A DNA stretch of 64,000 nt, from the IMG/VR virus record IMGVR_UViG_3300029258_002996, one strand, 5' to 3'. Made by a program: the position numbers and the translations under genes. The notes below the pieces were generated by a model. That model saw only the letters and a program-made list of their open reading frames with translations, ran no database searches and was not told the DNA's origin. Below, piece by piece: positions 6,067 to 44,421 of the stretch (within the stretch, counting starts at the first letter, position 1; each line of letters begins with the position of its first letter). The stretch is from a virus.

Positions 6067-6318
6067 TTAACCCCGCACCTTGACTACAACACCTCTTTTT
6101 CCTCGTTGAGCTTTTCGGACCCTGAACTCCTTGAACCGGCTTTGGTACGAGGAGCACTTGCCGATAGCTTCCCAGAGATACTGAGCGATCTGGCCCAGGA
6201 AATCCACGTACTCCGCGTACAGCTCAGGTTCGTTCTCCCGGAGATGTTGGGCGAACCTGTAGTCCGTGTCGAGGATCTCCCGCAGCGTCTTGGTTTTGGT
6301 TTTGATCTTGCGTACCAT
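6067..6318 (-). CDS. Hypothetical protein
   Basis: GGAGGT RBS before MVRKIK. Confidence 0.55.
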   Translation of the reverse strand: MVRKIKTKTKTLREILDTDYRFAQHLRENEPELYAEYVDFLGQIAQYLWEAIGKCSSYQSRFKEFRVRKAQRGKRGVVVKVRG

Positions 6319-23000: not shown

Positions 23001-24050
23001 CTATTCAGCCAAGAAATCCTCGGCTACCTCATCCCAATAAACCTCACCTAAAGCACCGTTGAGAAGTTCCGAGAAGGGTGACATCAGGTCGACACCCTCC
23101 AACATCTCCTCGAAATAAGTTTTCATGAGGTCGGCCAACCCGAACTTCACGGATTCTTCGGGAGTCCATACCTCGGACGGAGCACCTCCCTCGGATTTGA
23201 GATCCTCCACCTGCTCTGTCCAGTACTCGTACTCGCCTCGATCATTGTTGATGTACAAGGCGACTGCCCAGGTTTCGTAGTTCTTGTAGCCTTCGTGAGT
23301 TCCTGCCTGAGCCTGCTTCTGCATTGCGCTGGCGATTCTGGCAACGCTCGAACCTTCGAGACCTTTTTGAACTCTTCCGGATCCGTCAAACTTCAGTTCA
23401 CTTTTCATTTTCGACTCCACTCCCGGCATTCCCGTTTGCCGAGGATCAACCGGCTCGGGGCCGGGCTCTTCTTCGTCTCGTTCGAGATACCCGAGCGCAT
23501 CGAGAGCCTCTCGAATCTCTTCTTCCGGTACCCAAGCAACCCCCGTTTCATCGGGTTCCAAAGCCGTTTGATTGTTTTCCCACAACCAACTGAAAACTTG
23601 CTTCGCCCAGTCTTCAGGAGCATCTTCCCGTACCGATCCCCATCCTTCTTGATCTATGTTGTCGATAGTCTCTTCGTACTCTCGGCGAGAGACTTCTTCG
23701 TCATCCAGGACAGGGTAATCCATGAGAGCGCCCATGAAGCCTTGAAGCTCTTCGCCCGCAGGCGTCAAGCTGCCGTCAGGTTCCAAGACTTTGACCGCGC
23801 GCTCGCCTCCACGAGCGCGAACGACTTGATCCGGGTATTTCTCAAGAGCTTCCAGAACGACTTCCATGTTGGATATGTCACGATGCGTCATCATCCCTTT
23901 TTGGGTGCCTTCGAGCATTGCCCATTGATCTTCTTCCCCTTCAGGAATATCAGTATAATGCAACTGAAATCGAGCAGCAGATTCGTCTCCGTACAAGCCA
24001 GCATCGTTAACGTCTTGACGGAATCTGGTAATTTCTTTGTAGAGATCCAT
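23001..24050 (-). CDS. Acidic multi-module protein (putative virion cargo)
   Basis: A DYPVLDDEEVSRREYE module, then linker QKQAQ, then a GYKNYETWAVALYINND...VYWDEVAE module. Confidence 0.75.
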   Translation of the reverse strand: MDLYKEITRFRQDVNDAGLYGDESAARFQLHYTDIPEGEEDQWAMLEGTQKGMMTHRDISNMEVVLEALEKYPDQVVRARGGERAVKVLEPDGSLTPAGEELQGFMGALMDYPVLDDEEVSRREYEETIDNIDQEGWGSVREDAPEDWAKQVFSWLWENNQTALEPDETGVAWVPEEEIREALDALGYLERDEEEPGPEPVDPRQTGMPGVESKMKSELKFDGSGRVQKGLEGSSVARIASAMQKQAQAGTHEGYKNYETWAVALYINNDRGEYEYWTEQVEDLKSEGGAPSEVWTPEESVKFGLADLMKTYFEEMLEGVDLMSPFSELLNGALGEVYWDEVAEDFLAE

Positions 24051-27865: not shown

Positions 27866-30253
27866 TTAATGTCTGTCCAGATCTTGTTCGATCAAATCCA
27901 TCTTCGATATCGGTTCCTTCTCCCACTTCTCGGCGAACGCCTCAAACCAGGAGACGATATCCACATCTTCGGGCAGCTCCTGACCGGCAGTGACTGCGTC
28001 GACAATCGCGCGCTTGGACTCGATGAGATCGATGATGTCGTTGTCGAAGGTGCCGTCCGCATACAGCCAGTAGGAGTTGATGTTGCTGGCCTCGGTACCG
28101 ATCCGGTGGACGCGGGCCTCGGCCTGATCCATGTCGGCAGGGTTCCAACCGAACTCGACGAACGCGACGTTCGAGGCGACCTGGAGGTTGAGTCCGACAT
28201 TCCCCGACTTGAGAGAGGTCACGATAACTCGGCAAGAATCGTCGGTCCAGAACTTCTCAATCTCCTCAGCGCGTCTCTCGTCACCGTCACCGCCCGAGAT
28301 CCTGGCAGGGTTGTAGTCCTTCAGTTCCCTACTCAGATGTTCCTGAACGTCCCTGTGATGCGCGAAGAGGACCAGCTTACCATCGGAATCCAGGAAGTTC
28401 TTGACCCACTCTACGCAGCCTCTGAGCTTGTGCTTGACGACGATCTGCTTCAGTCCCTCGATCTCGGCCAATGCCTCCACTGAGTACGCCTTTTGATCAA
28501 AGCTCCTGTTTCCTTCGCGTTCCGCCTTCTTATCCTTCAACCACTCGATGACGTTGGCGACGGCATCCCTGTATTTCTCGGGACGGTCAATCTCGATGGG
28601 CACGCGAGTCCGCTGAATAGGCGGCAGTTCCTTGGCCACATCTTTCTTCTCGCGGCGCACGAAGCAGCTCGCCCGCAGCTTGCGACCGAGTTCCTCCAGG
28701 TTCGAAGCGCCACTCATATCCCACCCGTACTTGGTCCTGGTGGCGTCGCAGTAACGCTTCATGAAGTTCCAAGCCCCGCCGAACTCGTCCAGACGGTCCA
28801 GGAACGCAAGCTGATTGACCATCTCGACCGGGCGGTTGAGAACTGGGGTGCCGGTCAGGCAGAGCCTTACCTTGGCGGAGGGGAGCGCTGAGAGCGCCAT
28901 CGCCGCCATCGAACGAGCCGCCTTCTTGTTCTTGATGTAGTGGCTCTCGTCGAGGATAATGGCTTTCCACTCGATCTTCGCAAGAGCAGCCTCGTGGCTC
29001 GCCAGGATGTCGTAGTTGATGAACACGAAGTCCGCGTCGTAGGACTGCTCCTGCTTGCCCGAGATGATCTTCACGGACTTGCCAGGAACCCACCTACGAG
29101 CTTCGGCGGCGAACTGAAGCTTGACCGGAGAGGGGATGATGAAGAGAGCGGGGTAAGCGTTCTCGGCTTGGACAGTACCGATGGCCTGGATCGACTTGCC
29201 AAGTCCCATTTCATCACCGATAAAAGTGCGCTTGGCTTTCATCGCGTAGGCAACCCCACCGCGCTGGAAGGGGCGCAGCTTCAGAGTATCGTCCCCGAGC
29301 CCGTCGACCTCCAGCTCCGCGTCGAGCGCCATGCTGCCCTCGACCTTTTTCTTCGCATCGCCTTCGAGATCGAGGAGTTGTTCCTTGACGCCAGGAGCGA
29401 AGTTCCAGCCGAACTCGTCAGCCATGTCGATGATCTTGCGCGCGGACTCGATGTTGATCGGGAAGGTATTGACCTTCTTCTCCGGATCCCATTTACGCCC
29501 CTGGACGTTTCGCATCGAGCTGATGGCGGAGGCATTGTAAGGGGTCCTGGCAACAATGCGCTTGCCTTCGATGGAGAGGTGGTGCGCCTTCGACTCTTCG
29601 ATCTTGCGTTCTTCCTGAAGTCGATGCTCGGCCTTGATCAATCCTTCGAGCTTCGTGAGATCCTCATCGGAGATGATGAAGTCAAACTCGTCGAGGATCG
29701 CCTTGAGACCGATCAAACCAGGACCACTAACCGTCCAGCAAGAGCCCGTCCACTTGCGCCCTTTCCAAGGAAGAGACTTGATCGCGGCGATAAGATTGGC
29801 GTTGCGAGGTGAGTATAACTCGAAGCAGACACCAGTGGGATTCCAGACGGCGATCATTTGCTTCTTGAACTTGTAGATCGCAGCTCGAACCCCCTGTTCC
29901 TTCAGGACCTTCAAGCATTCTTCCCGCTCCGCCTTGGCCTTCATCCTCTTGGAGACTTCGCCACGCTTCGGCCCCTTCTCCCACTTGATCTGCGGACGGG
30001 GCAGCTCGGCATAGTCGATGCCATGATCGGTGAGCTGACCCCGGTACTTTCGGAGCATCTCCCAAACGACATAACAGGTCTCGTCATCCCACTTGTGCGG
30101 GGGGACGATGGCGATGTAGTTGCCGAAGCTCTGATCGCTCTTGTTAAAACCATGACCATCTTTGAGCGCAGCCCCGTCGCAGACAGCAGAGAGGGAAGCC
30201 GCCGCATGTTGAAGTTCGGTGGCAACCTCCGTCATTGTCATCTTGCCCTCCAT
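27866..30253 (-). CDS. SNF2-family helicase with HARP-like domains (SMARCAL1-like annealing helicase)
   Basis: DEMGLGKS, ILDESH, LTGTP, GLNLQ, QAEARVHRIG; TPYN...GRKWDPEKK HARP-like repeats. Confidence 0.92.
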   Translation of the reverse strand: MEGKMTMTEVATELQHAAASLSAVCDGAALKDGHGFNKSDQSFGNYIAIVPPHKWDDETCYVVWEMLRKYRGQLTDHGIDYAELPRPQIKWEKGPKRGEVSKRMKAKAEREECLKVLKEQGVRAAIYKFKKQMIAVWNPTGVCFELYSPRNANLIAAIKSLPWKGRKWTGSCWTVSGPGLIGLKAILDEFDFIISDEDLTKLEGLIKAEHRLQEERKIEESKAHHLSIEGKRIVARTPYNASAISSMRNVQGRKWDPEKKVNTFPINIESARKIIDMADEFGWNFAPGVKEQLLDLEGDAKKKVEGSMALDAELEVDGLGDDTLKLRPFQRGGVAYAMKAKRTFIGDEMGLGKSIQAIGTVQAENAYPALFIIPSPVKLQFAAEARRWVPGKSVKIISGKQEQSYDADFVFINYDILASHEAALAKIEWKAIILDESHYIKNKKAARSMAAMALSALPSAKVRLCLTGTPVLNRPVEMVNQLAFLDRLDEFGGAWNFMKRYCDATRTKYGWDMSGASNLEELGRKLRASCFVRREKKDVAKELPPIQRTRVPIEIDRPEKYRDAVANVIEWLKDKKAEREGNRSFDQKAYSVEALAEIEGLKQIVVKHKLRGCVEWVKNFLDSDGKLVLFAHHRDVQEHLSRELKDYNPARISGGDGDERRAEEIEKFWTDDSCRVIVTSLKSGNVGLNLQVASNVAFVEFGWNPADMDQAEARVHRIGTEASNINSYWLYADGTFDNDIIDLIESKRAIVDAVTAGQELPEDVDIVSWFEAFAEKWEKEPISKMDLIEQDLDRH

Positions 30254-31239: not shown

Positions 31240-31434
31240 TTAATTTTCCTTGATTCGAATCTTCTTTATTCGATTTCCGGGACATTGAATAATGGCGCGT
31301 TTATAGGGAGGAAAGTCATCTTCAATCTTCAATATATCGCAATGAGGATACTTCTGCTTGATGTACCAAATGTAGGGATCTCGGGTACAAGCTGCGATGA
31401 CAAACAGCGAGAGAATGATAATGAAGAGCTTCAT
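31240..31434 (-). CDS. Small lipoprotein
   Basis: Lipobox-like IAAC after a hydrophobic leader. Confidence 0.55.
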   Translation of the reverse strand: MKLFIIILSLFVIAACTRDPYIWYIKQKYPHCDILKIEDDFPPYKRAIIQCPGNRIKKIRIKEN

Positions 31435-33056
31435 CAGCGAGCAGCTACTTCAATCTCATCCCACCGAACTTTGATCAAAGTAAGATCATCTTCGAGGCGC
31501 ACGAGATAGCGGTTTCCCCACCGATCAAGGAGACTTTCAGCATACCCTATCGTTCCTTTCGGAATTGTTTTGGTACCGCCCCATCCGAAAGGAACTTTCA
31601 GCTCGCGCTTCGTTTTCACTTTCTCGTTCTGGTTAAAGCTCTGCGTAGGAAAAGCTTCGTGCTCAACGTTCTCCCCCAATTCCTCAATGCGCTCCTCGGC
31701 GGTCTCTGCTTCCTCGAAAGCTTTTTTCGAAGCCGCAACCTGACCTCCCTGCACGGATTGAAGGGCCTGCTGAATCGCCATCGTGGACTCGGCATCGAGG
31801 GTCTGGTTCGCCCAATACGCATCGACGAGCTGCGAGGCGGTCATCTCGTCGTAGCCAGCAGCCATTAAAGCATCGATGACGGAGAGCTTCGTGTCCTCCT
31901 CGCCCCAATCGAACGACCAGCTCTGTTGCTGTCCGAGCTTCTTGGCGACGAAACCGAACTGAACGGCCTCCAGAGCCTCCTGGATGTCCATCGTGGTCTG
32001 CGCATCCAGAGTATCGCCTGCCCAGTACGCAGCGACGGCGTTCCCCGCCATGCCCTCGTCGTAACCCTTCTGCATGAGGTAGTAGGTCACGTCATCCTTG
32101 GTTGTGCTTTCCTCGTCAGAAGGGGTGTAAGACCAGAACTGAGCCCGGAGGCGACGGCGGACGAGCTTCGGATCCAAGTTTGCGTGGCGCTCAACAGTGA
32201 AAGAGACGATGGGCTCCAACGGTGTGGAGAGATCGACACCCTCCATCAGGCTCGCCAGATCCGCAGCCATGTTCGGAGCCGCGTCCATCCCGGTCGGCTC
32301 GACCACGTTCTGCTGGAGGCACGTCAGAGTCAGCTCGTGCATCTGGGTTTCGAGCCTCTCGCGCTTCATCCAGCTATCATCTGAGTTCATTTGGGCTTCG
32401 TCGATGGCATCTTCGAGATCGAGCAGCTCACGAATCTTGGCAATCGCTTGAGGTTCGAGCGGATCCCCGACGAATCGAGCAAGGTAGTCCTCGATGTCGC
32501 ACCAACCCCAAAACGCTTTCTTCTTTTTGGCTGAGATCACGATGACCGCAGCGGCTTCGGAGGAGGTGGCTTTCATCCGCTCCAGATTGAGCATGTCGAG
32601 GTCGTACATGATCTTGTCTTTTTGGCGGTACAGATCGTTGATCGGTTGGTTCTCAGTCTCCTGCATCCCCAACTCGAAGTAGGTCTGGAGCATCGCAGCG
32701 GCTTCCTCTTCGAACTGAGTGCCTTTGAACGACATGAACCAGTCCTCCCACTGCATCGAATCGAAATAACCTTTTTTCCGCATCGCCTGTACCTCCGCAG
32801 CAGCTCCTTGACCTAAAGTGCCTTTTTCGGACTCGTAAAGATCCACGGCTGCGTTACTCACGTAGTTCAAAAGAGCGTCGGAGCCGTCAAGCTCTTCATT
32901 CTCCCCTTGTAAATTATCAAGATCAACGGGAACATCCGTCTCCCATCCTAAGCTTCCGTGCTCGGACACATTGACGTGATAAGAATCCGGGACATCGGAC
33001 GGTGAAACCGTCACGTCGTAACCCCGGATAAGCGTGGTGTAAGTGTCCTGTCCCAT
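31434..33056 (-). CDS. Acidic multi-module protein with two internal tandem domain duplications
   Basis: Likely start MGQDT at 33056; linkers KKKKAF, RRLRAQ, KKLGQ, KKAF. Confidence 0.75.
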   Translation of the reverse strand: MGQDTYTTLIRGYDVTVSPSDVPDSYHVNVSEHGSLGWETDVPVDLDNLQGENEELDGSDALLNYVSNAAVDLYESEKGTLGQGAAAEVQAMRKKGYFDSMQWEDWFMSFKGTQFEEEAAAMLQTYFELGMQETENQPINDLYRQKDKIMYDLDMLNLERMKATSSEAAAVIVISAKKKKAFWGWCDIEDYLARFVGDPLEPQAIAKIRELLDLEDAIDEAQMNSDDSWMKRERLETQMHELTLTCLQQNVVEPTGMDAAPNMAADLASLMEGVDLSTPLEPIVSFTVERHANLDPKLVRRRLRAQFWSYTPSDEESTTKDDVTYYLMQKGYDEGMAGNAVAAYWAGDTLDAQTTMDIQEALEAVQFGFVAKKLGQQQSWSFDWGEEDTKLSVIDALMAAGYDEMTASQLVDAYWANQTLDAESTMAIQQALQSVQGGQVAASKKAFEEAETAEERIEELGENVEHEAFPTQSFNQNEKVKTKRELKVPFGWGGTKTIPKGTIGYAESLLDRWGNRYLVRLEDDLTLIKVRWDEIEVAAR

Positions 33057-33058
33057 CT

Positions 33059-35929
33059 CTACCAGTTCTGCGCTATCGCGAGAAGAACGTCCTCGATGAG
33101 CGCCTTTGACCCCTTTGCGATGAAGTGAGGAAGCTCTTTCAACAGCTCGTCCGCGCTCCACTCCCGGAAATGGTACTCCTCGCCGTTGCTGAGCTTGATG
33201 TCGATTGAAGGGAGACTCGGATCGTAATTCACTTCACCGCCAGCAGCACGCTCGGATTCCGCACGCTCGATGTACTGCTGGACCATTTCGTCTTCCGATA
33301 CCTGAGCCCCCCGTCGATCAAAAGGGCGCTTATCCCCCTTCTTCGAGGCGCTCTTTTCTTCATAAATAAACTGCTCCCAAACACCTTGATTGCCTCGAAG
33401 AGACTCCAAAGCATCTTCGAAGATTTCCTGCTGCTCCTCCTCATCTTCAGGGCGTGGCACCTCATCGTAAGGATGCGAGTTCGCTATGGCGGACTTGAGG
33501 TGTACGTAAGTCACCGGTTCCGTATCCGCAGCACCTTCCATAATGTAGTCGTACAGTTGTTCCCGAAGCTCGTCGTCCTCGTAGACAAAATCCTCGAAAA
33601 CAGGGACAGTATCGATCAGATGCAGTTCGGCAGACGGAGTTAACTCTGCGACGTGAACGCCGAGATTTGCATCGAACAGGTAACCGCTGTAGACCTTCTT
33701 GATGCCTTTAGGAAGAGAAGTCCAGTATTCCGTATCGTCCATCAGGTAGATACGAAGATCCATCATCTTCTGCTCTTCTTGAGCCTTCTTCTTCGAGGCG
33801 CTTTCCACTTCCCATCCTTCTTCCGCTTCCCCTACCGCGCCTCCGCTAACCAAAGTCTCCCTACCAAAGGATTCGAAAATACTTTCGTTCCCGCAAGCAT
33901 TTCTTTGAGCCTCTTCAAGTGAGTCATATTCCGCCGCTTGACCTCGATCATTAGTATAAGAACTTAAAGAACCGGGACGAGACACATACATGCCGTCTTC
34001 ATTTCTTTTAAGCACGTACTTACCTACTTTCTTCGAGGCGATCCTCTCCGTCCCCGGGCGCATCCGTCCTCGGTTGCTGCCGTAAGGATTGATGATGAAC
34101 CCATCGTTTGTCAGGTGGACCATCCAGTGATGCGACGAGCAAGTGGAGAGCCTCTTCAGGATGTAGTTTTTCTCGACGTGCGCGTAGGAACGCGGGAACG
34201 TGTCGAGACCTTCCTCCTCGGCCTGGACCATGTCCCCGAGAACCAGATCATAACCGGGCGGAGTGAACTTCTGAAGCTCGGGTTCACGCTTCGAAGTGGG
34301 GTCGAAGGGATCGAACTGCTGAGCTTTTTTATCCATTTTATCACCTGCTTTTCTAACGCCAGTTACGTACTCAGCGATGATTCTCGCCGCGAGCTTACGA
34401 CCCGTTGCCGTCTGCATTCCGGACTGACCCACGTAGGTCACGAGATCCTGAGTCAACTGATGCCAGTCGATTTCCTGGTCCGGGTAGATTTGCATCGAAA
34501 GAGGTCGCACGGCATCATAGACCATCGAGACCTGCTCCTCGAAGGTCGGAGGAGCAAGAGAAGCTTCGATGTAACTCAACATCTCAGGTTGCTGGACTAC
34601 CTGGTTGTACATATCCGCAGTGGGAGTGGCGGCTCCGTACTGAGGTTGGGTTTGTTCTGTCGGTGCATAGATGTCCGTCTGCTGCACCATCGTGGGATCC
34701 GTAGCTACGTCAGGACGACCGCCCTGCTCGGGAGAGAGGACGCGAGTTTCTTGAGCTTCCCTCTTAGCCCACATCTTCTTGAAGGTCCTCGGAAGCGGCT
34801 CGATATCATCTACCGTCACCCGGTATTCCATTCCCTTGGCATTGACAATCATCGTGTTCGCGTCCGGGTCCAACTCGACAATCTTTCCTCGGATGGAACC
34901 ATCGAGACCGTTGAACTTCACCGAGTCTCCCGCTTCAATGGGAGTTTTGGTGTTCGGGTACATGAGGTGTGTCGGCGTAACCTCGGGACTCTCCTCGTCC
35001 GAAGGGGGCTCCGAAATGTCGGTGTTGATCTGAGCAGACCTCTGAACTCCCTTTCCCTTCTCAACCACCTCGACAATCGATTCCTCGAACCCGGAGGTCT
35101 CCATGCCCGTCGCGGGATCGATCCCCGAAAAACCGGGCTTGCCGCCCCACAGCTCGGGGTGACGTTCGGTGACGATGGCGGTCGTGAACTCGCCCGGGCT
35201 CACCTCGTACTGAACGAGATCCCCGATCTCGTAAGGAACACCACCAGGCTCCTGCCCCATCATGGGAAAGAGTTGCTCCTCTTTTCTCCGGTAGGTCCTC
35301 CGGTTGTAGTTTTCGTCCATCGGAACGCGCCGAGGTTGATAACCCATTTCGTTTCGTCGCTCTACCGCGATGTCGAGTTCCTCCCCTTGGTTCGGGGCTT
35401 GGTATTGCCTCCGAAGGGGATCCAGAAAGTACGAGCTATTGCGACGGATGATCTCGTCGATAGCCCCTTGTCCGAGAACGTACAGTCGATCCTCGAACAT
35501 CATCGTCGAGGGGGGAACCACTGCTCCGGATACTACGGGCACAAAAATCGTCGCATTCCTAACAGCACCTGAAGTCGTCGCAAAGCGGAGATTGAAGAGC
35601 AGCTCACCAGAGACGAGCTGGGATTCGTCGTGCCTGGCGTACTTGAGCTTGCGGGCTTGGCGGAACTCGACCCTCGGCACCAACGGCCAGTCGAGGACGT
35701 TCACCACTTCCTGCGTGGCAATCGCAGCTTCCTGAATGTAGGCGTTCAGATCCCGCACTCCAGACTTCATACCGACCTGCTTGACCTTGGAAAAGATGTC
35801 ATCGAGATCGACTTTCTCCGAAGTCTTCGTCATCTTCTGCCGCATTGCGGCCATGCGCCTGTCGTAATCGTCGAACAGAGGATGTTCGGCAACGTGCTTT
35901 TTTTTCTTCAGTTCCTCAAAAGTCGGCAT
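33059..35929 (-). CDS. 956-aa acidic multi-module protein (putative polyprotein)
   Basis: Linkers QRSAQ, KREAQ, KKAQ, KKKAQ, RRGAQ. Confidence 0.8.
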   Translation of the reverse strand: MPTFEELKKKKHVAEHPLFDDYDRRMAAMRQKMTKTSEKVDLDDIFSKVKQVGMKSGVRDLNAYIQEAAIATQEVVNVLDWPLVPRVEFRQARKLKYARHDESQLVSGELLFNLRFATTSGAVRNATIFVPVVSGAVVPPSTMMFEDRLYVLGQGAIDEIIRRNSSYFLDPLRRQYQAPNQGEELDIAVERRNEMGYQPRRVPMDENYNRRTYRRKEEQLFPMMGQEPGGVPYEIGDLVQYEVSPGEFTTAIVTERHPELWGGKPGFSGIDPATGMETSGFEESIVEVVEKGKGVQRSAQINTDISEPPSDEESPEVTPTHLMYPNTKTPIEAGDSVKFNGLDGSIRGKIVELDPDANTMIVNAKGMEYRVTVDDIEPLPRTFKKMWAKREAQETRVLSPEQGGRPDVATDPTMVQQTDIYAPTEQTQPQYGAATPTADMYNQVVQQPEMLSYIEASLAPPTFEEQVSMVYDAVRPLSMQIYPDQEIDWHQLTQDLVTYVGQSGMQTATGRKLAARIIAEYVTGVRKAGDKMDKKAQQFDPFDPTSKREPELQKFTPPGYDLVLGDMVQAEEEGLDTFPRSYAHVEKNYILKRLSTCSSHHWMVHLTNDGFIINPYGSNRGRMRPGTERIASKKVGKYVLKRNEDGMYVSRPGSLSSYTNDRGQAAEYDSLEEAQRNACGNESIFESFGRETLVSGGAVGEAEEGWEVESASKKKAQEEQKMMDLRIYLMDDTEYWTSLPKGIKKVYSGYLFDANLGVHVAELTPSAELHLIDTVPVFEDFVYEDDELREQLYDYIMEGAADTEPVTYVHLKSAIANSHPYDEVPRPEDEEEQQEIFEDALESLRGNQGVWEQFIYEEKSASKKGDKRPFDRRGAQVSEDEMVQQYIERAESERAAGGEVNYDPSLPSIDIKLSNGEEYHFREWSADELLKELPHFIAKGSKALIEDVLLAIAQNW

Positions 35930-35932
35930 CGA

Positions 35933-36283
35933 TTACCTCGGACTTTGTCTAGGTATGGGTTGAGTCATCGGAGAAGGAGCCGGATTTCTAATCTTACGTC
36001 TCCGATCTTTGTCGTTCTGTCTTTGTTGGTCCCGAGTCGTTTGTACCGGCTCCGAGCCAAACGGATTGTCCACTCCGATAATCAAGCTGGATTTTACTCT
36101 TATGTTTGCATAACCGCCCGATTTCTTGGGATTCCAAAACGGAATCTCGTCATTCCCGGATCGAATATCGGCCCACAGCTCGTCGATTGTCTTATGCTCG
36201 CACAACACCGAAAACGTAGCTCCGGAACAAAACAAACGATACGGGTACAGAACCTCGGGAATTTGAACCAAGCTCGACATCAA
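35933..36283 (-). CDS. Hypothetical protein
   Basis: Operonic ORF. Confidence 0.6.
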   Translation of the reverse strand: MMSSLVQIPEVLYPYRLFCSGATFSVLCEHKTIDELWADIRSGNDEIPFWNPKKSGGYANIRVKSSLIIGVDNPFGSEPVQTTRDQQRQNDKDRRRKIRNPAPSPMTQPIPRQSPR

Positions 36284-36852
36284 AGCTCATCCTCGATCAA
36301 TGCGCGAACGATGTTGTCGGACCTTCGTTCATGCTCTAAATTTCGGTCGTCGATTTCGGAAAAAGCGAAAATGGCGATTTTGTCTCCGGGGCTCACTTCA
36401 TTCAGATCGCAAAATCCGCCATTGACTTCGATCACTCCATCGCAATTTCGGCAGCCCCACCTCTCCTTCGAGTTGACCTGAGTATTTCTCTGGACTTTGG
36501 AAACAACGCTATCTTTCAGGAACAACAGGTCTAGGGGGAACTTCACGGATCCTTGATGGAACACGACATCGTGATATCCCGGATAGGGGAAGTACAGACC
36601 GCAATCCTCCGGCAGACAATCGTAGTTTTGCAAGCCGACTCTCTTCTTTTCGAGGGTATCGGCGACATCGCAATGAACTTTGATCGATTTGTCCAGCCAC
36701 ATCGCGGTGACGTGGGTTACCGGAACAGGTTTGAGATCATCCGTCAGTCGCACAACTCCGGCTTCGAACATGTGGACATGCGGCGGCCCGTCCCAGTTGA
36801 TCAGGAGGCCGTAGTCCTCTTCGAACTGCCGTGCGTGCAACTTGACCAGCAT
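36280..36852 (-). CDS. DUF192-family protein
   Basis: VADTLEKKRVGL...GLYF...VKFPLDLLF...VIEVNGG. Confidence 0.85.
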   Translation of the reverse strand: MLVKLHARQFEEDYGLLINWDGPPHVHMFEAGVVRLTDDLKPVPVTHVTAMWLDKSIKVHCDVADTLEKKRVGLQNYDCLPEDCGLYFPYPGYHDVVFHQGSVKFPLDLLFLKDSVVSKVQRNTQVNSKERWGCRNCDGVIEVNGGFCDLNEVSPGDKIAIFAFSEIDDRNLEHERRSDNIVRALIEDEL

Positions 36853-37256
36853 TACTTCTTCCGAGTCTTCCTCGTTTTCTTGGACTTCTTCTCTTTTGGA
36901 GGCTCGGGTTCCTCTTTCGGCGCAGGCTCCGTCTCCGGCTCGGGTTCCGGAGAGGCTGCTTTCTTCTCGGCCTTCTTCGGCTTCTCCTCGGAATCCTTCT
37001 TCTCAAAGAGCTTAGGCACCCTCGAATGGAGCATATGCAGCAGCTCAGGCTGCTCCTTCAGGTCCGCCACGCTCATTCCCGTAAGCTCAACCAGATCCAC
37101 CGAGGACTGCTTCGTCACCACCACCGGAATCGCAGAGGAACGTAGCAATCTGCGTTTCTTGTGCCGAGACATTTCGTCGGGAAGGTCCACTTTCGGATAG
37201 AGCGTGAAGCTCACCGAACCTTGACCCGGGTTGAAAACTACGAATTTTTCAGTCAT
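36852..37256 (-). CDS. Hypothetical protein
   Basis: AAGGAG RBS; operonic. Confidence 0.65.
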   Translation of the reverse strand: MTEKFVVFNPGQGSVSFTLYPKVDLPDEMSRHKKRRLLRSSAIPVVVTKQSSVDLVELTGMSVADLKEQPELLHMLHSRVPKLFEKKDSEEKPKKAEKKAASPEPEPETEPAPKEEPEPPKEKKSKKTRKTRKK

Positions 37257-37268
37257 GAATCTCTCCTT

Positions 37269-40200
37269 TTATTCAAAAAGGGCCGACATCGATTTGTTCT
37301 GCGGAAGACCGAACAGCTTGCGGGCGTCCGACAGATTGAGCCCCAGCTCCAGGAGCAGACGACGGGATAGCTCGGCCACCTTCTGCGTGGTTACTTGCTC
37401 CGGGCTCGTAGCGTTCACCGGCATCGACTGAACTTCTGCCAGAATCTGAAACGCCTGCTGCTCGGCGGGCATCTCCTTCGGCATCCCCTCCCCGAACTCA
37501 GGCATCGGGGCCGCAGGTTGGGTTAGCGCGGGAGTCTCTGGAGCTGCGGGAGCTGCCGGGGCCATCTGCGCCCGGCGCTTGTCGATCTTTTTCTGGATCA
37601 GGAGCGCCATCCGCTTGGCGACCGGGGGCGACACCGCAGGTCCCGTAGGCGCGGCAGGAGCCGGTACCCCAGGCCCCGGAGCCGATGGGCCGGGCGTGGC
37701 TGGAGCAGGCCCCGGAGCCTTCGGGGCACCTGGCATCTGTTTCTCGGGACCTTTCTTCTTGGTCCCGGGCTTGTTGAGCTTGATTTCGAGGACCTTCTTC
37801 TTGTCCTCGTCATCCATCAGCGAGATGTCCTCGGGAGTCCACCCGAGAGCCTGGAGACCCTCGTCTCCCGTTCCCGGAGACATTCCGGGGGCCTTGGGGG
37901 CTCCTGTAGCGCCGGGAGCCTTCGGAGCACCAGGAGCGGCTGGAGGAGCCGCAGGAGCAGGTCCGGGAGCCGGAGCGGTAGGCGCCGGTGCGGGAGCAGC
38001 CGGTTGGGCCATCGGAGCGGCGGCTTGGGCCTCGCGCTTGGCGCGGATCCATGCCTCGCGGCGCTTCTTGCGACCGGCTTTTCCCTTCAGTCCCTTTGGA
38101 ATACCCATCGGGCCTTTGCCTTTCCCCCGCATCTTCCCTTCACCTTTGCCCTTGGGAAGCTTCTTCTCCGGCTTCGGCTTGGTGACATCCCCATCCTCGG
38201 TGAGCTGCTTCCCGTACTCGCCCGCGTAGCCCTGCCAGTACTCCTTGGCGGATTCGTCGACCGCTTCCATCTCGCCGCCAGCAGAATTGCCATACCTACC
38301 TACTTTATTGTTTTCACGAACTTCCCATTCATCCTCCGGACCAAAGTCACTTGGAGGATCGTAGTCGGAACCTTCCTCGTCCAGAATACGACGCAATCTT
38401 TCAGGAGAAACAATCTGAACCATGCGACCGAGATCTTTATCGTATCTATGAGTAATCTCTGATGCTTCCATCTCGCCGCCAGCGGACTCTTCCTTCTTGG
38501 AGCTTGGGCACCCGGCTGCGGCTTGGCGAGATTCCTTATCCCAGCCTTGTCGCTTAACGTACTCTTCGTACTCCTCACGGTACTCCTCGTATTCTTCGAG
38601 AAGTTCGTCAGCTCCATCTGTCATGTACATTTCGAAAAGGTAGTCCAACGCATCCTCTTCTGTATCGAAAACAGACAAATCAGTTCGATCCATATAGCCA
38701 GGAGCGGACATGTAAGCGCCGTAACCTTGACGAAGCTCGATATCGTGAATCTCGCTATTCTCCAGATAGTCTCGAAGGGAAGTCCCCTCGACGCTCGCCC
38801 TCCCATCTTTCTCGATCTCCCGTTTCAACTCTTCGATCTCTTCTCCATCGACATACTCAGCCGAAACAGATTCACCACCCATCGGACCATCTACCTCAAC
38901 CCACTCACCATGTTCAACGAAAGGCTCCATGAACGCGGCCTGCTTCCGAGCCTGAACGGCAGGAGCTTGCTCCATCGGAGCCTGACCTTCTACCTCACCC
39001 GAGCCGGTCGGTTCGCTCCCTTCCTCGGGTTGAGCTGGGCGAAAAGGGCTCCAGTCCACCTCCTCCCCGCCAAACGCCATCGTCAGGGCGTGAAGCTCCT
39101 CGGCGGACTCGGCCTCAATGTCGCGACCGTAGCCGCCCTCGGGAGACCACTTCTCGCGAAGCTTGGGGCCAGCGACCTTCCAGTTGATCGCGCCAGGCTT
39201 CAAATCCCCGTTCCCGACGAGCATCCAAGCGAAGTCTTTAAGATCGTCGAGCTTGAACTCATCAACTTCCGCAACGAGCCGCGAAGCAATCTTAATGAAG
39301 TCGTCAGTGACATCCAGATCACCGCGCAAGATGGAAGCAATCAACTCGGACTTTTTCTTCTTGTCTTTGCCACCCGGAGTGTAGCCCTCGCCCTCCATCC
39401 AGTTGGCCAACGCCCATGGGTTGTCGATCTCGGGATCTCCCTTCATCTCCTTGACCGTCTTCTCCCACTTCTTCGGAACCTTGGCCTCGGTGTTGCCACC
39501 GGCTTCATCCATCGCACGGCGAGCGTGGCGCTGAGTCTTCTCGGTCGGCAGGAACACGTTGTTCGCAGCCCACTTGTCCGGATCCATGATGTCCCGGAGA
39601 AGCTGCTCGCTCGGACGTGCCCGTTTCATTTCCCGGTAGATATGGGAAGCATCGGGGGGTGAGTCGAAGGAGTCGACGATCTTGGAACCTTCCCGCTCTT
39701 CCCCTAAAAACTTGGAAATGAGCATCGGCTGAATGCCGGAAACGTCTTTGTAGTCAGTACGCATCAACTCAGCAGCGTGCTGCATCGTCTTGGTATACAA
39801 AGGTTCTATACCAGGGATCAGTAAGATGTAGTTGTAACCTTTTTCCTGCATCCCACGAGCGACCTCCTCTTCGTCCATCGCCCTGCGACGACCTTCCTTC
39901 TCATCTCGCAGATCCTTGCCCTCACCCTTCTCCTGGTCGATGACCTTCGACGGATCCGAGGGAGTCTCGCCCTTGTTCAGGTTCTTGCCAGGCTCCTCCT
40001 GGACCTTGACCTTGAAGGGGTCTTTACCGCCGTCTTCGGCACGGCGACGAGAACCCTTACCCGGGTATGAACGAAGTCGATTCTCAAAGGACGTCCAATC
40101 TACCGGACCTTTTGGAGTATCCCAATCGGGATTCTCTCCAGGAGCGGCGATGAAATAATCAGACCACTCCGAGATTTTTCCGTTTTCGATTACGACATTA

Positions 40201-40850
40201 TCCAAATTTTCGGGAGCATTCTCGACTAGGTCCCCTAAAGTCCCTATGTAGTTGGATTCATCGTCGTATACTTCTAATTCCGACCAATGAATTCCCGATT
40301 CGGCTCGGCGACGAGCATCCTTTTCGTTCCGCATCCTTCGATCACCCCAGTTTGTATCCGCGCCACCGGTATCCTTCCCGAGACTCGTGTCCGGAAGACC
40401 GCCACGTCCTTCGTCCTGTCGAGGACGCTTGTTGATGGCCGGGTCGAAGTTTCGAGGATTTCGATCCGAAGTATCTGGACCGAGCCGTGGGTTCGAGGTC
40501 GAAGTACCCTTCGAATCCGTCCCCTTCGGAGTCTCGTTCACGGTCGGATTGTACTTTGGATATTCCTTGGTCGAGGTATCCTTTTCGAGAACTTCGGCAG
40601 GCGAAGGAAGGCTCTGAGAAGGTCCTTGCGTCTCGTTCACACCCGGGATGGGCATGTCGGCTTCCTTGCAGAACCGGCGCACCTCCTCATCGAGTCGGCC
40701 AATATGGGTGGCGAAGCCATCGCCCTCGGGTGGCCAGATCTCTACATCGTCGTTGTCGTTGATTCGCATCAACCAGCCGCCAGGATTCTCGACAGTCTGA
40801 CCGTCAAAGAGTGCGCTCTTTACCTGCCTCGGATTCAATTCCTTTGCCAT
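37269..40850 (-). CDS. ~1190-aa multi-module protein (putative polyprotein/internal head protein)
   Basis: Likely start MAKELN at 40850; linkers RRRAE x2, RRRAM, RRAM, RKQAA, KREAQ, KRRAQ; IDNPWALANWM and SAPGYMDRTD modules; Pro/Ala-rich tail. Confidence 0.8.
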   Translation of the reverse strand: MAKELNPRQVKSALFDGQTVENPGGWLMRINDNDDVEIWPPEGDGFATHIGRLDEEVRRFCKEADMPIPGVNETQGPSQSLPSPAEVLEKDTSTKEYPKYNPTVNETPKGTDSKGTSTSNPRLGPDTSDRNPRNFDPAINKRPRQDEGRGGLPDTSLGKDTGGADTNWGDRRMRNEKDARRRAESGIHWSELEVYDDESNYIGTLGDLVENAPENLDNVVIENGKISEWSDYFIAAPGENPDWDTPKGPVDWTSFENRLRSYPGKGSRRRAEDGGKDPFKVKVQEEPGKNLNKGETPSDPSKVIDQEKGEGKDLRDEKEGRRRAMDEEEVARGMQEKGYNYILLIPGIEPLYTKTMQHAAELMRTDYKDVSGIQPMLISKFLGEEREGSKIVDSFDSPPDASHIYREMKRARPSEQLLRDIMDPDKWAANNVFLPTEKTQRHARRAMDEAGGNTEAKVPKKWEKTVKEMKGDPEIDNPWALANWMEGEGYTPGGKDKKKKSELIASILRGDLDVTDDFIKIASRLVAEVDEFKLDDLKDFAWMLVGNGDLKPGAINWKVAGPKLREKWSPEGGYGRDIEAESAEELHALTMAFGGEEVDWSPFRPAQPEEGSEPTGSGEVEGQAPMEQAPAVQARKQAAFMEPFVEHGEWVEVDGPMGGESVSAEYVDGEEIEELKREIEKDGRASVEGTSLRDYLENSEIHDIELRQGYGAYMSAPGYMDRTDLSVFDTEEDALDYLFEMYMTDGADELLEEYEEYREEYEEYVKRQGWDKESRQAAAGCPSSKKEESAGGEMEASEITHRYDKDLGRMVQIVSPERLRRILDEEGSDYDPPSDFGPEDEWEVRENNKVGRYGNSAGGEMEAVDESAKEYWQGYAGEYGKQLTEDGDVTKPKPEKKLPKGKGEGKMRGKGKGPMGIPKGLKGKAGRKKRREAWIRAKREAQAAAPMAQPAAPAPAPTAPAPGPAPAAPPAAPGAPKAPGATGAPKAPGMSPGTGDEGLQALGWTPEDISLMDDEDKKKVLEIKLNKPGTKKKGPEKQMPGAPKAPGPAPATPGPSAPGPGVPAPAAPTGPAVSPPVAKRMALLIQKKIDKRRAQMAPAAPAAPETPALTQPAAPMPEFGEGMPKEMPAEQQAFQILAEVQSMPVNATSPEQVTTQKVAELSRRLLLELGLNLSDARKLFGLPQNKSMSALFE

Positions 40851-40891
40851 TTTATTCCTCGACCTTCCTTTGTGAAAAAGGTTTTTAGTTT

Positions 40892-41953
40892 TTATTCGAA
40901 ATCCTCTTCGTCGTCCTCGAAACCCCTCAACCACAGCTTCGCTTCAGGATGCTCGGACGCTCTCAGAGTTTGAACAAAATCCTCAAGTGTATCAAACTCT
41001 TCAGACCAGTATTGCCACCCTTCGGTAATCGCGTTCATATAAGCTTCTTCAATCTGGTATTGATCTGCGTCGGGACCGAACTCTTCCCTGATTTCGTTCC
41101 AGAGACCTTCGTCCAACTCTTCGGAAAGTTTGTCATTGAAGAAAGCGTCATGAGCCTTTTCAAGACCGTGATCGATACCCCGTCCCGTAATGACGACGTA
41201 GGAGTCCGCCTCCATCTCGTCGCCGTCATAAACCCCAACTACGGAGACGGGGGAATCAGCATCTTGGGGGTAGAAAACGTCTTGATCGACGATGTCCTTG
41301 ACTGGATACTGGCTGAGGAGAGCGTCAAGGTTGGCTTTCTTTCTCCGACCCTCACGTCCGAAGTCCTCTTCGTCGTCCTCGAACTCTTCTTCCTCGGGTT
41401 TGTCCCAGTCCGTGTCGTACTCTTCTCCAAAGAGTTCGTGAACCTCTTTGTAATTGAGAGTGAGTGGGTATTGGTCGAACTCGAAAGGTCCGAAGTACCA
41501 AATAAGATCTCGATAAGCCTGCCCACGTTCGGCAGGGTCGTCCGACTTCAATTCGTTTACGAGTTCTTCTTTAGAAGACCCTACACTATCGGCAACCCCT
41601 TCCAAATCCTTCGCCCAGAAAGGTTCATCAAAGCGGGAAACTCCTCGATTAAATGTCAAGGCAACGTCGGGAACTAGATAACCGTCGATCTCCGCGAACT
41701 TCTCGATGTCAAATCGAGAGATGGTCCAGGTGGCTTGGTACTCGTTCTCCGCATCTGGATTCCAGTCCAGATCGTTCTCGACGTACCAGCCTTCGGGACC
41801 GTACTGGGTCTGGACAATCAAGAGACCGCCGTAGTCAATGAAGTTCACATCTCCGAGATTGGCGATAATGTCAGGTTTGTCACTCTTGCCTTCCTGAGCT
41901 TTGACGTTCTTGGAGATCCTCTTCAATGCTTCGTCAGGGAGTACTTGTCTCAT
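40892..41953 (-). CDS. Acidic two-module protein
   Basis: KNVKAQ, then a GDVNFIDYGG module, then RRKKAN, then a second module. Confidence 0.75.
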   Translation of the reverse strand: MRQVLPDEALKRISKNVKAQEGKSDKPDIIANLGDVNFIDYGGLLIVQTQYGPEGWYVENDLDWNPDAENEYQATWTISRFDIEKFAEIDGYLVPDVALTFNRGVSRFDEPFWAKDLEGVADSVGSSKEELVNELKSDDPAERGQAYRDLIWYFGPFEFDQYPLTLNYKEVHELFGEEYDTDWDKPEEEEFEDDEEDFGREGRRKKANLDALLSQYPVKDIVDQDVFYPQDADSPVSVVGVYDGDEMEADSYVVITGRGIDHGLEKAHDAFFNDKLSEELDEGLWNEIREEFGPDADQYQIEEAYMNAITEGWQYWSEEFDTLEDFVQTLRASEHPEAKLWLRGFEDDEEDFE

Positions 41954-44319
41954 CTTTCCAACCCCTCTTCCTCGCGCATTTCGGCAAGGTCGTTCAGAAT
42001 TTCGAGCAGCTCAGGGTCTCCCGCGTAGGCCAACTCCGTCTCCATTCCCGCAGTATGTGGGATTTCCAACCCGTGATGCTCGTGACTGTCGTACCACCCT
42101 ACTCCGTGACCCATTCCCTCCATCGCGAGGTAGTGACCGAACTCGTCGCGGTTGAAGTCCTCATCCTCACCAGGAGGAATGAAGGTTTCCAGGTCGACGT
42201 TGTTGGAGCGCTCGATATCTCGGTAGAAGTTGGTTGCAAATTCGATAGCTTCGGGTGGAGTCTCCGGGGCAATGTTCATCAACTCGGCCCCCATGAAGTT
42301 CGGGGACTCGATTTCGACATCCACTTCATCGGCAAGGCGGTCAGCCTCCTCCCATTCGTCTGCCCACGAAGAGACAAAGAAGGCGCGAGCCATCGCTTCG
42401 ACAATAGTAGGATCCGGTTCACCCGCTTGAGCTTGACGACGAGCCTCGTGTCCAGGAGTTCCGAGAAGGTTTAACACATCCTTCAAATCCCACAAAAGCT
42501 CCGTACCTTCATCCAGAGCTTCCCGGTATTCCCTTTTCTTTGATTCATCCGCGACTACGTCAGGTTGCTTGATATTCACCTCGTACCATCTAACCGCGTC
42601 CTCAAGCTCCTCATGCGCGGCTTCGATTACGTCTTTTTCTACCGGATGCCCTGCGGACCAGTTAGATCCCAGCGCATAGAGTGCAGATCCTTGCCCTCCG
42701 TGCCATTTGAGAAGATCTTCCGCAAGCCCCCGATCTGGCTTGATTTCTTCTTCTTGAGCTTGACGACGAGATCCCCTCCAAGCAGGACCCCAAAGCTCAC
42801 CCTCGGGGGGTTCCTCTTCGCGGGAGGGCTTGTCCCAATCGAAATCCTCGACGAGGTGGAAGTTCCCGTGATCGGAAACGTGCCAAATATTTGGCCAATA
42901 CTGTTGACGGTTCCCCTCTTCTCGAATGGCATCTTCAATGCCATCCCACTCGACAAACTCTCCAAGATGCTTTCCTGCGAAGTAGACATCTTCGCCCCCA
43001 AGATATGAAGCGGACTGGATGAAAACATCATCTTCGTCGGGCTCAAAATCGTCTCCCTGAGCTTGGCGACGAGCAACCGCTCCAGAACCCATCCCGCCAT
43101 GACCAGGACCAGCTTCAGGACCCGCCTGCGCTTTACCTTTTCCTACCTGACCAGGTCCGCGCTTGGGTTTCTTGACTTCGTGGAGAGATTCTTTTTCAGC
43201 TTGCTGCTGAGACTGAGGTCGAGGGGGAAGGGAGGGATCTGGTTCGAGACCGAGGAGATCTCCCATTGCTTCACCCGGACGCATGTTGAGCGCAGGATCT
43301 TCCCCTAAAGGATCCGAAGGGAAGTAATCCTCAAGAGGATTCCAAGTAGCCCATTCGGGTGCCCCGCTCATCGCACGCTCTTCTTCGGGACTTAACCATC
43401 TCTGTGAAGGATCCGAAAATGTTTCTTCCGGTGTTTTCGCGAATGGCGCATCCTGCTGCACCGTTGCAGGTCCTCGCGGAGTCTGAATGTACTTGACGCC
43501 CGGTTCATTGCCGGACGCCTGAGCGTCCCTACGGTAAAAAGGGCGCTTCCCACCCCCTCGACGAGCATTCGGACCTTGACGCTTGCGCTTGGGGGGAGGA
43601 TTCTCCTTACGGAACTCCCCGGAATCACCACCCCCGACCTCGTGCTTGATCTTCTTCTGCACCCAGTCGGCAGTCTCCTCGCCATATTCCAGGTCAGGCT
43701 CTTCCCCGTTTACCATTGAAAGAACAAACCGGCGAGCCTTTACCTGATGTGGGAGAGGACCGTTCAAACCGTGCTTTAGGATCAGACGGTCGTAGTCTTC
43801 CTGAGTTTCGATCTGAGAGGCGATGCGCTGGAGGTCGTTGATCGGGAGAGTCGCGTAACCTTTCTGACCGATTTCGACGATCACCTCCGCCGCCGCCGAC
43901 TTGGGGAAGTTCCGTTTGTAGTGATCGTGGAGCGTGAGGTAGGAGCTGGCAGTAATGGACCCGGTGCGGTTCTTCTTCCACATCCCCTCCAGATGACCGT
44001 ACAAAGCCCGAAGACCGTGATCAGTCCCGAGGTCCTTGCGCGCCTTCACGATTCGATAGGCGTCGAAGACGGAAGCTACGGGAAGATTTCCGTTGATCTG
44101 CCCCGCTTCTCGATCAAGCTCCTCGGCGATCTTCTTCCGAACCTGCTCGACATGGGGAATATTCAACCGGAACTCCCGGGAATTCGCCTCATCTTGAGCT
44201 TGACGGCGAGCGACGGCTCCCGAGTAGAGTTTCGCAAGCCTGCCGACTCGAAGATCACCGACAGATTGCTGGGAAAAATCCGCGAGGTCCTGTTTGACGT
44301 TACGCCCGAATCTATTCAT
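41950..44319 (-). CDS. 789-aa multi-module protein (putative polyprotein)
   Basis: RRQAQ x4 and RRDAQ separate unrelated acidic modules. Confidence 0.8.
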   Translation of the reverse strand: MNRFGRNVKQDLADFSQQSVGDLRVGRLAKLYSGAVARRQAQDEANSREFRLNIPHVEQVRKKIAEELDREAGQINGNLPVASVFDAYRIVKARKDLGTDHGLRALYGHLEGMWKKNRTGSITASSYLTLHDHYKRNFPKSAAAEVIVEIGQKGYATLPINDLQRIASQIETQEDYDRLILKHGLNGPLPHQVKARRFVLSMVNGEEPDLEYGEETADWVQKKIKHEVGGGDSGEFRKENPPPKRKRQGPNARRGGGKRPFYRRDAQASGNEPGVKYIQTPRGPATVQQDAPFAKTPEETFSDPSQRWLSPEEERAMSGAPEWATWNPLEDYFPSDPLGEDPALNMRPGEAMGDLLGLEPDPSLPPRPQSQQQAEKESLHEVKKPKRGPGQVGKGKAQAGPEAGPGHGGMGSGAVARRQAQGDDFEPDEDDVFIQSASYLGGEDVYFAGKHLGEFVEWDGIEDAIREEGNRQQYWPNIWHVSDHGNFHLVEDFDWDKPSREEEPPEGELWGPAWRGSRRQAQEEEIKPDRGLAEDLLKWHGGQGSALYALGSNWSAGHPVEKDVIEAAHEELEDAVRWYEVNIKQPDVVADESKKREYREALDEGTELLWDLKDVLNLLGTPGHEARRQAQAGEPDPTIVEAMARAFFVSSWADEWEEADRLADEVDVEIESPNFMGAELMNIAPETPPEAIEFATNFYRDIERSNNVDLETFIPPGEDEDFNRDEFGHYLAMEGMGHGVGWYDSHEHHGLEIPHTAGMETELAYAGDPELLEILNDLAEMREEEGLER

Positions 44320-44421
44320 TTTGGATACTCCTCGGTGGTTTCCATTGTCATATTGAAAAACAGTTGTACCATAAGATGTTTGCTATGCTCTAAAGGCTGG
44401 GAAAGGAATTTTTCAGATTTT

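Follow-up and report, generated by a model that had tools for sequence, protein, structure and literature searches.

Leader-derived joints in modular carrier proteins of uncultured phages: a possible tag-and-cut system

The internal proteins of bacteriophage T4 are unrelated to one another and change fast, and what they have in common is just one short, conserved leader at the N terminus (PMC3012670). In SPN3US, one protease motif serves the capsid, the portal, and many ejection proteins, and a single propeptide can be cut several times (PMC10052503). Polyvalent proteins combine many conflict-type domains; it is predicted that they accompany the DNA and that some of them are cut into parts (PMC5512222). 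Here we describe a 13-kb stretch (positions 31434 to 44319) of a viral sequence of 64,000 nucleotides, IMG/VR record IMGVR_UViG_3300029258_002996, the whole of which is referred to below as the window. The stretch holds what are, as read from sequence, five genes in one conserved operon encoding the predicted carrier proteins A, B, C, and D, in which modules are separated by a short basic joint. The new observation is that this joint is, by its residues, a shortened copy of a leader peptide that heads many single-module genes in related genomes. We found no paper on leader-derived joints or on polyproteins of this type. The descriptive part of the picture stands: the operon encoding the carrier proteins is conserved, the modules are portable, and the joint derives from a leader. 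The best reading of these features, which we favor tentatively, is a tag-and-cut system like that of the T4 capsid-targeting sequence (CTS), in which proteins would be cut after Ala.

The joint peptide is a shortened leader

All genes in the window, and all window features given below, lie on the minus strand. Translation and motif mapping placed RRQAQ at four sites in the 789-aa open reading frame (ORF) of protein A (41950 to 44319), starting at 44208, 43071, 42768, and 42441, and RRDAQ at 43533. The 1221-aa ORF of protein B (37269 to 40934; probable start, Met29) carries RRRAE twice, RRRAM, RRAM, RKQAA, KREAQ, and KRRAQ, and the 956-aa ORF of protein C (33059 to 35929) carries QRSAQ, KREAQ, KKAQ, KKKAQ, and RRGAQ. 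A longer joint, KRPF.RR.AQ, is common to the 789- and 956-aa proteins, and QKQAQ occurs at 23321, in a 349-aa protein outside the cluster (23001 to 24050). All of these occurrences had been listed by an initial annotation of the sequence, and all were reproduced. With residue shuffles of each protein taken as the expectation, [RK][RK]xA[QEM] was seen 6 times versus 0.19 expected in the 789-aa protein, 5 times versus 0.40 in the 1221-aa protein, and 3 times versus 0.17 in the 956-aa protein (P<=0.001 in each case); from composition, RRQAQ would be expected 7e-4 times in the 789-aa protein. The linker had been proposed to run through five proteins, and this held for these three, whereas the strict form is absent from the 353-aa protein and the 575-aa ORF of the cluster, which have looser versions only. 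The motif was also enriched over the remainder of the window, with 10 occurrences of [RK][RK]xAQ in the three large proteins versus 1 across the rest of the window. That single occurrence lies in a 628-aa protein (6224 to 8110) with many weak PHROG matches to helix-turn-helix, transposase, and regulator families.

The motif extends to the relatives. In 56 cluster proteins (42,080 aa), 141 [RK][RK]xA sites were counted versus approximately 41 expected. The position after the joint Ala is Q in 30% of the sites, against a background of 4.5%, with A, E, and G next in frequency, and at position -4, the residues A, S, and G together account for 52%. The joint consensus is [A/S/G]-[R/K]-[R/K]-x-A-[Q/A/E/G].

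Six-frame scans uncovered an N-terminal leader of approximately 16 to 22 aa that ends in A-Q/E and whose core, GIPDxGL[KR]RIA, lies 8 to 10 residues from the start Met. In the window, it opens the 353-aa protein (40892 to 41953), where it occupies aa 1 to 21 (41891 to 41953) and ends in KAQ; a stand-alone module gene of relative G002 opens with a similar peptide of roughly 20 aa, and both copies end in A-Q. The leader is present on approximately six genes of G002, two of them among structural genes, and on two or three genes each of G001 and G005. The most extensive set was found in G003 (L038:3877-10190), where eight consecutive genes headed by near-identical leaders lie directly downstream of the gene for protein D, with overlapping stop and start codons and bodies unrelated to each other. 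One of these bodies matches DUF5662, and one weakly matches ParB_N. The last residues of the G003 leader, RRIAQ, are themselves the joint motif. Furthermore, the 349-aa protein of the window contains an internal leader-like peptide that ends in QKQAQ (23307 to 23321) ahead of an NYETWAV module (phrog_871), and in G002 the NYETWAV module is a stand-alone, leader-headed gene of 132 aa. The joint motif at the end of the leader, together with an internal leader ahead of a module, suggests that the joint is the leader end retained after in-frame fusion. Neighboring leader-tagged genes with overlapping stop and start codons could fuse, so that the leader of the downstream gene would become an internal joint. 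This shared leader was not noticed in the initial annotation, and its ending in the same motif strengthens the tag-and-cut idea put forward there.

The joint might instead be a recombination scar only, that is, DNA microhomology used for cassette shuffling, with no role for the peptide. Several features fit this explanation. Thirteen of the 16 joint Ala codons in the window are GCT, versus 34% GCT overall; copies of the joint differ little in their DNA, being nearly identical; the DNA of four G003 leaders is almost identical; and the protein P0007 contains a perfect tandem duplication whose unit starts and ends at a joint. However, the peptide is kept across relatives while its codons differ freely, indicating that the peptide is under selection, and distant family members retain basic-x-Ala-Gln/Asp in unrelated DNA. 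In distant members and GenBank record KX853510.1 taken together, the residue behind basic-x-Ala is Gln, Asp, or Glu. We therefore consider a scar without a protein role to be very improbable. Recombination probably does take place at the joints as a secondary process, and homogenization of joint DNA within a genome probably helps shuffling. Two further roles for these elements were rejected. Synonymous sites of the leader vary, indicating that the constraint acts on the protein rather than on an RNA-level element, and the joints are not internal ribosome-binding sites or starts, since their Arg codons are CGN and not AGG and most are not followed by a start codon. In KX853510.1 (Virus Rctr197k; L060), genes 034 to 036 are the same cluster, all annotated as "hypothetical," and a 990-aa protein of that record has SRRVAD, SRRIAD, and GRRRAE joints.

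Conserved cores carry portable modules

One syntenic operon, in the order A, B, three small proteins, C, and D, was found in at least nine related contigs; of the ten IMG/VR loci that show it, four belong to complete genomes of 175 to 212 kb. A protein search with the 789-aa protein returned about a dozen relatives in which the shared part is the first approximately 210 residues, followed by differing sets of modules; an identical copy of the protein is encoded on a 139,861-bp JGI contig. This shared part, the A core (aa 1 to 209; 43693 to 44319), is predicted by AlphaFold 2 (AF2) to be all-alpha (mean predicted local distance difference test [pLDDT] score, 75), and it makes up the entire protein A in G001, G004, and L009, whose orthologues are 210 to 213 aa long. 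Foldseek found no PDB fold match for the A core. A role as a protease was rejected, as the alignment of the core has no invariant Ser, His, Asp, or Cys.

Behind the core, protein A consists of a long disordered, basic and Pro-rich stretch and three portable modules. The joint RRDAQ (aa 263 to 267; 43519 to 43533) is preceded by KRPF and forms the extended joint seen also in protein C. The next joint, RRQAQ at aa 417 to 421 (43057 to 43071), lies in a stretch with pLDDT scores below 50 and is followed directly by module 1 (aa 422 to 503; 42811 to 43056), of the YWPNIWH type, which has stand-alone homologues of 84 to 103 aa (P0065, P0123, P0148, P0141, and P0112). Homology to these stand-alone proteins begins at approximately aa 419 to 426 of A. 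The RRQAQ at aa 518 to 522 (42754 to 42768) is likewise in a low-confidence stretch (aa 497 to 525; pLDDT scores below 50), ahead of module 2 (aa 530 to 620; 42460 to 42732), a helical module of the WHGGQGS type that was modeled with pLDDT scores of 78 to 91 and has homologues P0039, P0058, P0072, and P0074. The RRQAQ at aa 627 to 631 (42427 to 42441) forms a short connecting helix with pLDDT scores of 66 to 69 between domains at 85 and 97, and behind it lies module 3 (aa 634 to 784; 41968 to 42420; pLDDT scores of 92 to 98), of the FGHYLAME..GHGVGW type, for which there are dozens of stand-alone homologues of 127 to 170 aa. The AF2 model of the modules covered aa 404 to 789, and module 1 was folded without alignment support, as MAFFT misplaced its homologues. 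The first RRQAQ, at aa 38 (44194 to 44208), is inside a helix (aa 33 to 52) of the folded core and is not conserved in relatives, so this copy is not a linker. The earlier proposal that the motif marks domain borders was supported by the AF2 model and by homology onset at aa 417, 518, and 627 but failed at aa 38.

The modules recur in other contexts. In G002, module 3 of A is encoded by a gene of its own (185 aa; 60% identity); the GDVNFIDYGG module, which occupies aa 27 to 179 of the 353-aa protein between the leader and an acidic tail, is found inside the 1009-aa C-type protein of G001 and in P0012 and P0021; and the SAPGYMDRTD module of protein B is also present in the A-type proteins P0010 and P0016. 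A HMMER search with residues 211 to 789 of protein A against 1.84 billion representatives gave 942 matches, in which modules 1 and 3 appear both as stand-alone proteins (84 to 103 aa and 127 to 170 aa, respectively) and within many other multimodule proteins. Module homology sets in within a few residues after the joints, and homology breakpoints are approximately 2 times likelier near a motif than at random positions. The initial annotation had taken the modules for small stand-alone phage proteins, and the homologues of 84 to 185 aa, found in hundreds of sequences, support this. Stand-alone homologues in other phage lineages have no leader.

The other operon members show the same arrangement to differing degrees. 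Protein B, 1000 to 1450 aa long across relatives, has conserved N- and C-terminal parts (aa 24 to 350 and 884 to 1221) around variable middle modules, with joints at aa 208, 296, 349, 472, 663, 966, and 1119; the one at aa 296, an RRRAE, is kept in orthologues. Short repeated peptides of the LGKDTS/LPDTS type, conserved in orthologues, occur in B at aa ~100 to 210 and ~970 to 1130, and a long Ala/Pro-rich stretch precedes its conserved C-terminal domain. Protein C has a conserved 220-aa N-terminal core (aa 1 to 220) followed by variable modules, with joints at aa 296, 389, 534, 713, and 872. The 575-aa ORF of protein D (31434 to 33161) has only loose joints and is conserved in its N- and C-terminal parts (aa 36 to 315 and 474 to 575); its start is probably Met36, giving 540 aa. 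The three small members, assigned by synteny, are proteins of 134 aa (36852 to 37256), 190 aa (36280 to 36852), and 116 aa (35933 to 36283). The 190-aa protein belongs to DUF192 (PF02643; Pfam E value, 2.3e-16) and is flanked mid-operon by the two others in all relatives. The family searches were otherwise unrevealing: the five proteins had no Pfam match at an E value of <=0.1 and only one weak PHROG family of unknown function, the modules, including stand-alone forms, matched no Pfam or PHROG family of known function and nothing in a BFVD fold search, the 134- and 116-aa proteins had no Pfam or PHROG match, and PDB sequence searches with A, B, and C found no match. DUF192 is the sole informative result of these searches.

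Head proteins of relatives and the genomic setting

The relatives encode a portal protein, a head-maturation protease (phrog_18299), a long scaffold-like protein, and a major head protein (phrog_2522; E value, 4e-58). The protease of the clade has conserved His and Ser motifs, and its profile has no PDB sequence match. PF03420 (gp21; MEROPS S77) had no match in five relatives and none in the control, PF04586 and PF00574 had no match, and no operon member matches a protease. The capsid protein has an invariant TK[KR]NA approximately 300 aa from its C terminus. The scaffold-like protein has a conserved RRAQEQ in 4 of 5 genomes, and near its C terminus [RK][RK]xA..GNF is conserved in all 5; KRTAQE is conserved in 4 of 4 portal proteins. 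The [RK][RK]xA sites of the capsid and scaffold-like proteins are plausible maturation sites. Ranked genome-wide by motif excess, the capsid protein is 2nd of 134, 4th of 131, 30th of 152, and 1st of 111 proteins, with the scaffold-like and portal proteins likewise near the top, a short way after the polyproteins. Peptides resembling the leader core (EGLLRIAS-like) are found in the C-terminal tail of the protease. The initial annotation had called for a prohead protease and for the same motif in capsid and scaffold proteins, and both have candidates in the relatives, with an enrichment that is modest. As separate observations, the portal gene of G002 (L020:3997-7143) contains an intein with a LAGLIDADG domain (Pfam E value, 2.4e-12), whereas the portals of other relatives are 1193 to 1435 aa long; a G002 gene adjoining the major head protein gene (L019:16571-17497) has a Pfam RRXRR match (2.3e-8); and one of three tape-measure paralogues (G002 161138; G003 42916) has a conserved internal DGLRRIA/S peptide.

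These sites bear on whether the leader and joint are a docking peptide rather than a cut site, binding a common partner such as an operon core protein, a chaperone, or a scaffold, with the multimodule proteins acting intact. The leader core is a helix-like conserved peptide in proteins of different destinations (the protease tail, the tape measure, and small proteins), the joint at aa 627 is predicted to be helical, conserved cores, of which that of protein A has no PDB fold match, accompany the modules, and some polyvalent proteins act uncleaved (PMC5512222). However, the internal joints retain the [RK][RK]xA[Q] end of the leader and drop the upstream GIPDxGL, which fits a retained cut site better. 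The same short rule recurs at the plausible capsid and scaffold maturation sites, and elsewhere these modules function as free proteins. Docking without cleavage thus seems unlikely, though it deserves serious weight.

The operon lies in a replication and recombination neighborhood rather than in a head module. Upstream are genes for PolA (59655 to 61880), a UvsX-like recombinase, SbcD, and SbcC, and downstream are genes for a phrog_421 protein, a helicase (27866 to 30253), and a methyltransferase. Alignment of the window with six relatives over the region ahead of gene A identified a conserved sigma-70-like promoter, TTTAGA-N17-TGnTAnAnT (44360 to 44394), the sequence of which is present in a single copy in the window. 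In G002, the same promoter class lies ahead of a leader-tagged gene and of tail-fiber-like genes. This setting would suit a polyprotein that is expressed early or midway in infection and cut by a phage or host protease in the infected cell, freeing effectors in the cytoplasm with no packaging. The leaderless stand-alone homologues in other phages, which are presumably cytoplasmic, and the conservation of the DUF192 protein and two small proteins inside the operon are consistent with this possibility. On the other hand, the only protease identified is the head-maturation protease, the motif and the leader core are also present in head-assembly proteins, and the promoter class is shared with tail-fiber-like genes. 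We consider release in the cytoplasm improbable.

In the tag-and-cut system that we tentatively favor, the leader would dock a protein in the assembling prohead, as the T4 CTS does, and the head-maturation protease would cut after the Ala of [RK][RK]xA. Cutting would remove leaders, free the modules of the polyproteins, and mature the capsid and scaffold proteins by the same rule. Joints would allow several modules to ride on one carrier, and the freed modules would leave with the DNA at infection. Several points weigh against this model. The support for cleavage and packaging is drawn from sequence, and all of the head-gene evidence comes from the genomes of relatives and not from the window's own. 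The motif enrichment of the head proteins is modest (p 0.005 to 0.4) and suggestive rather than decisive; the genomes are related, and the basic N terminus of the capsid protein inflates it. Folded regions contain the strict motif as well (aa 38 of protein A and RKLAQ in the capsid body), and a prohead protease would not be expected to act on the tape-measure site. The operon sits among replication and recombination genes (SbcCD, UvsX, and helicase), far from the head genes, and its conserved promoter, being sigma-70-like, would be compatible with early or late expression. The leaderless stand-alone homologues imply that the modules need no packaging to work, and we found no cultured relative with these genes.

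A broader proposal, on the doubtful side but possible, is that these elements form a general address-and-cut code, in which one leader of approximately 16 residues would load any protein into the capsid, mark the protease cut, and deliver dozens of host-takeover or anti-defense proteins. Under such a code, the cut signal would survive gene fusion, so tagged-gene arrays and giant polyproteins could interconvert freely, and a large marine phage clade would possess an expandable system for delivering small proteins with phage DNA. The observations bring order to approximately 13 kb that had carried no annotation, as well as to the corresponding cluster of KX853510.1. If the tag-and-cut model is correct, it would account for the occurrence of hundreds of small orphan phage proteins either alone or chained, provide in the leader plus [RK][RK]xA a sequence rule for candidate injected effectors in uncultured phages, and offer a portable tag with which foreign proteins could be loaded into capsids.

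Comparison with described systems

Herpesvirus assemblin, a serine protease of the HK97-type capsid protease superfamily, cuts V/L/I-X-A followed by S, with Ala at P1. The proposed cut here likewise falls after Ala, and the protease of the clade has conserved His and Ser motifs; in contrast, basic residues at P3 and P4 are not in the assemblin rule, and the clade protease has no detectable match to solved proteases. Polyvalent proteins (Iyer et al. 2017) resemble the carrier proteins in their multiple independent domains and mosaic, shuffled architectures, as seen among the operons analyzed here. Their hallmarks (zincin-like peptidase/MPTase, ArdC, MuF, and LPD domains) were not found in the five proteins by Pfam search. 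Polyvalent proteins process themselves, and no common joint peptide or leader has been described for them.

As in the clade described here, the head-internal proteins, capsid, and portal of SPN3US (whose protease is gp245) and the inner-body proteins of phiKZ share one short motif. Their cuts remove N-terminal propeptides, and the released pieces are not independent portable domains, unlike the modules of the carrier proteins. The motif also differs, being AXE or S/A/G-X-E rather than [ASG][RK][RK]xA[QAEG], and there is no sequence relationship.

The closest likeness is to T4, in which the internal proteins IPI to IPIII and Alt, with the CTS and gp21, provide the model of a leader shared by unrelated proteins and ending at a protease-type site. 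A short N-terminal leader on otherwise unrelated proteins is what we observed, on one protein in the window and on up to eight consecutive genes in G003, and the G003 array resembles the variable internal protein (IP) loci of T-even phages. The two systems differ in that the motif is [RK][RK]xA here and (L/I)xE in T4, that the genes here are not in a late or head context and are known from sequence alone, and that the clade protease has no S77 match (as was the case for the control). Above all, the end of the leader here doubles as an internal joint that chains modules into proteins of 800 to 1200 aa, which, if the tag-and-cut model is correct, would extend the T4 capsid-targeting idea to the modular, fusion-tolerant shipping of many small proteins.

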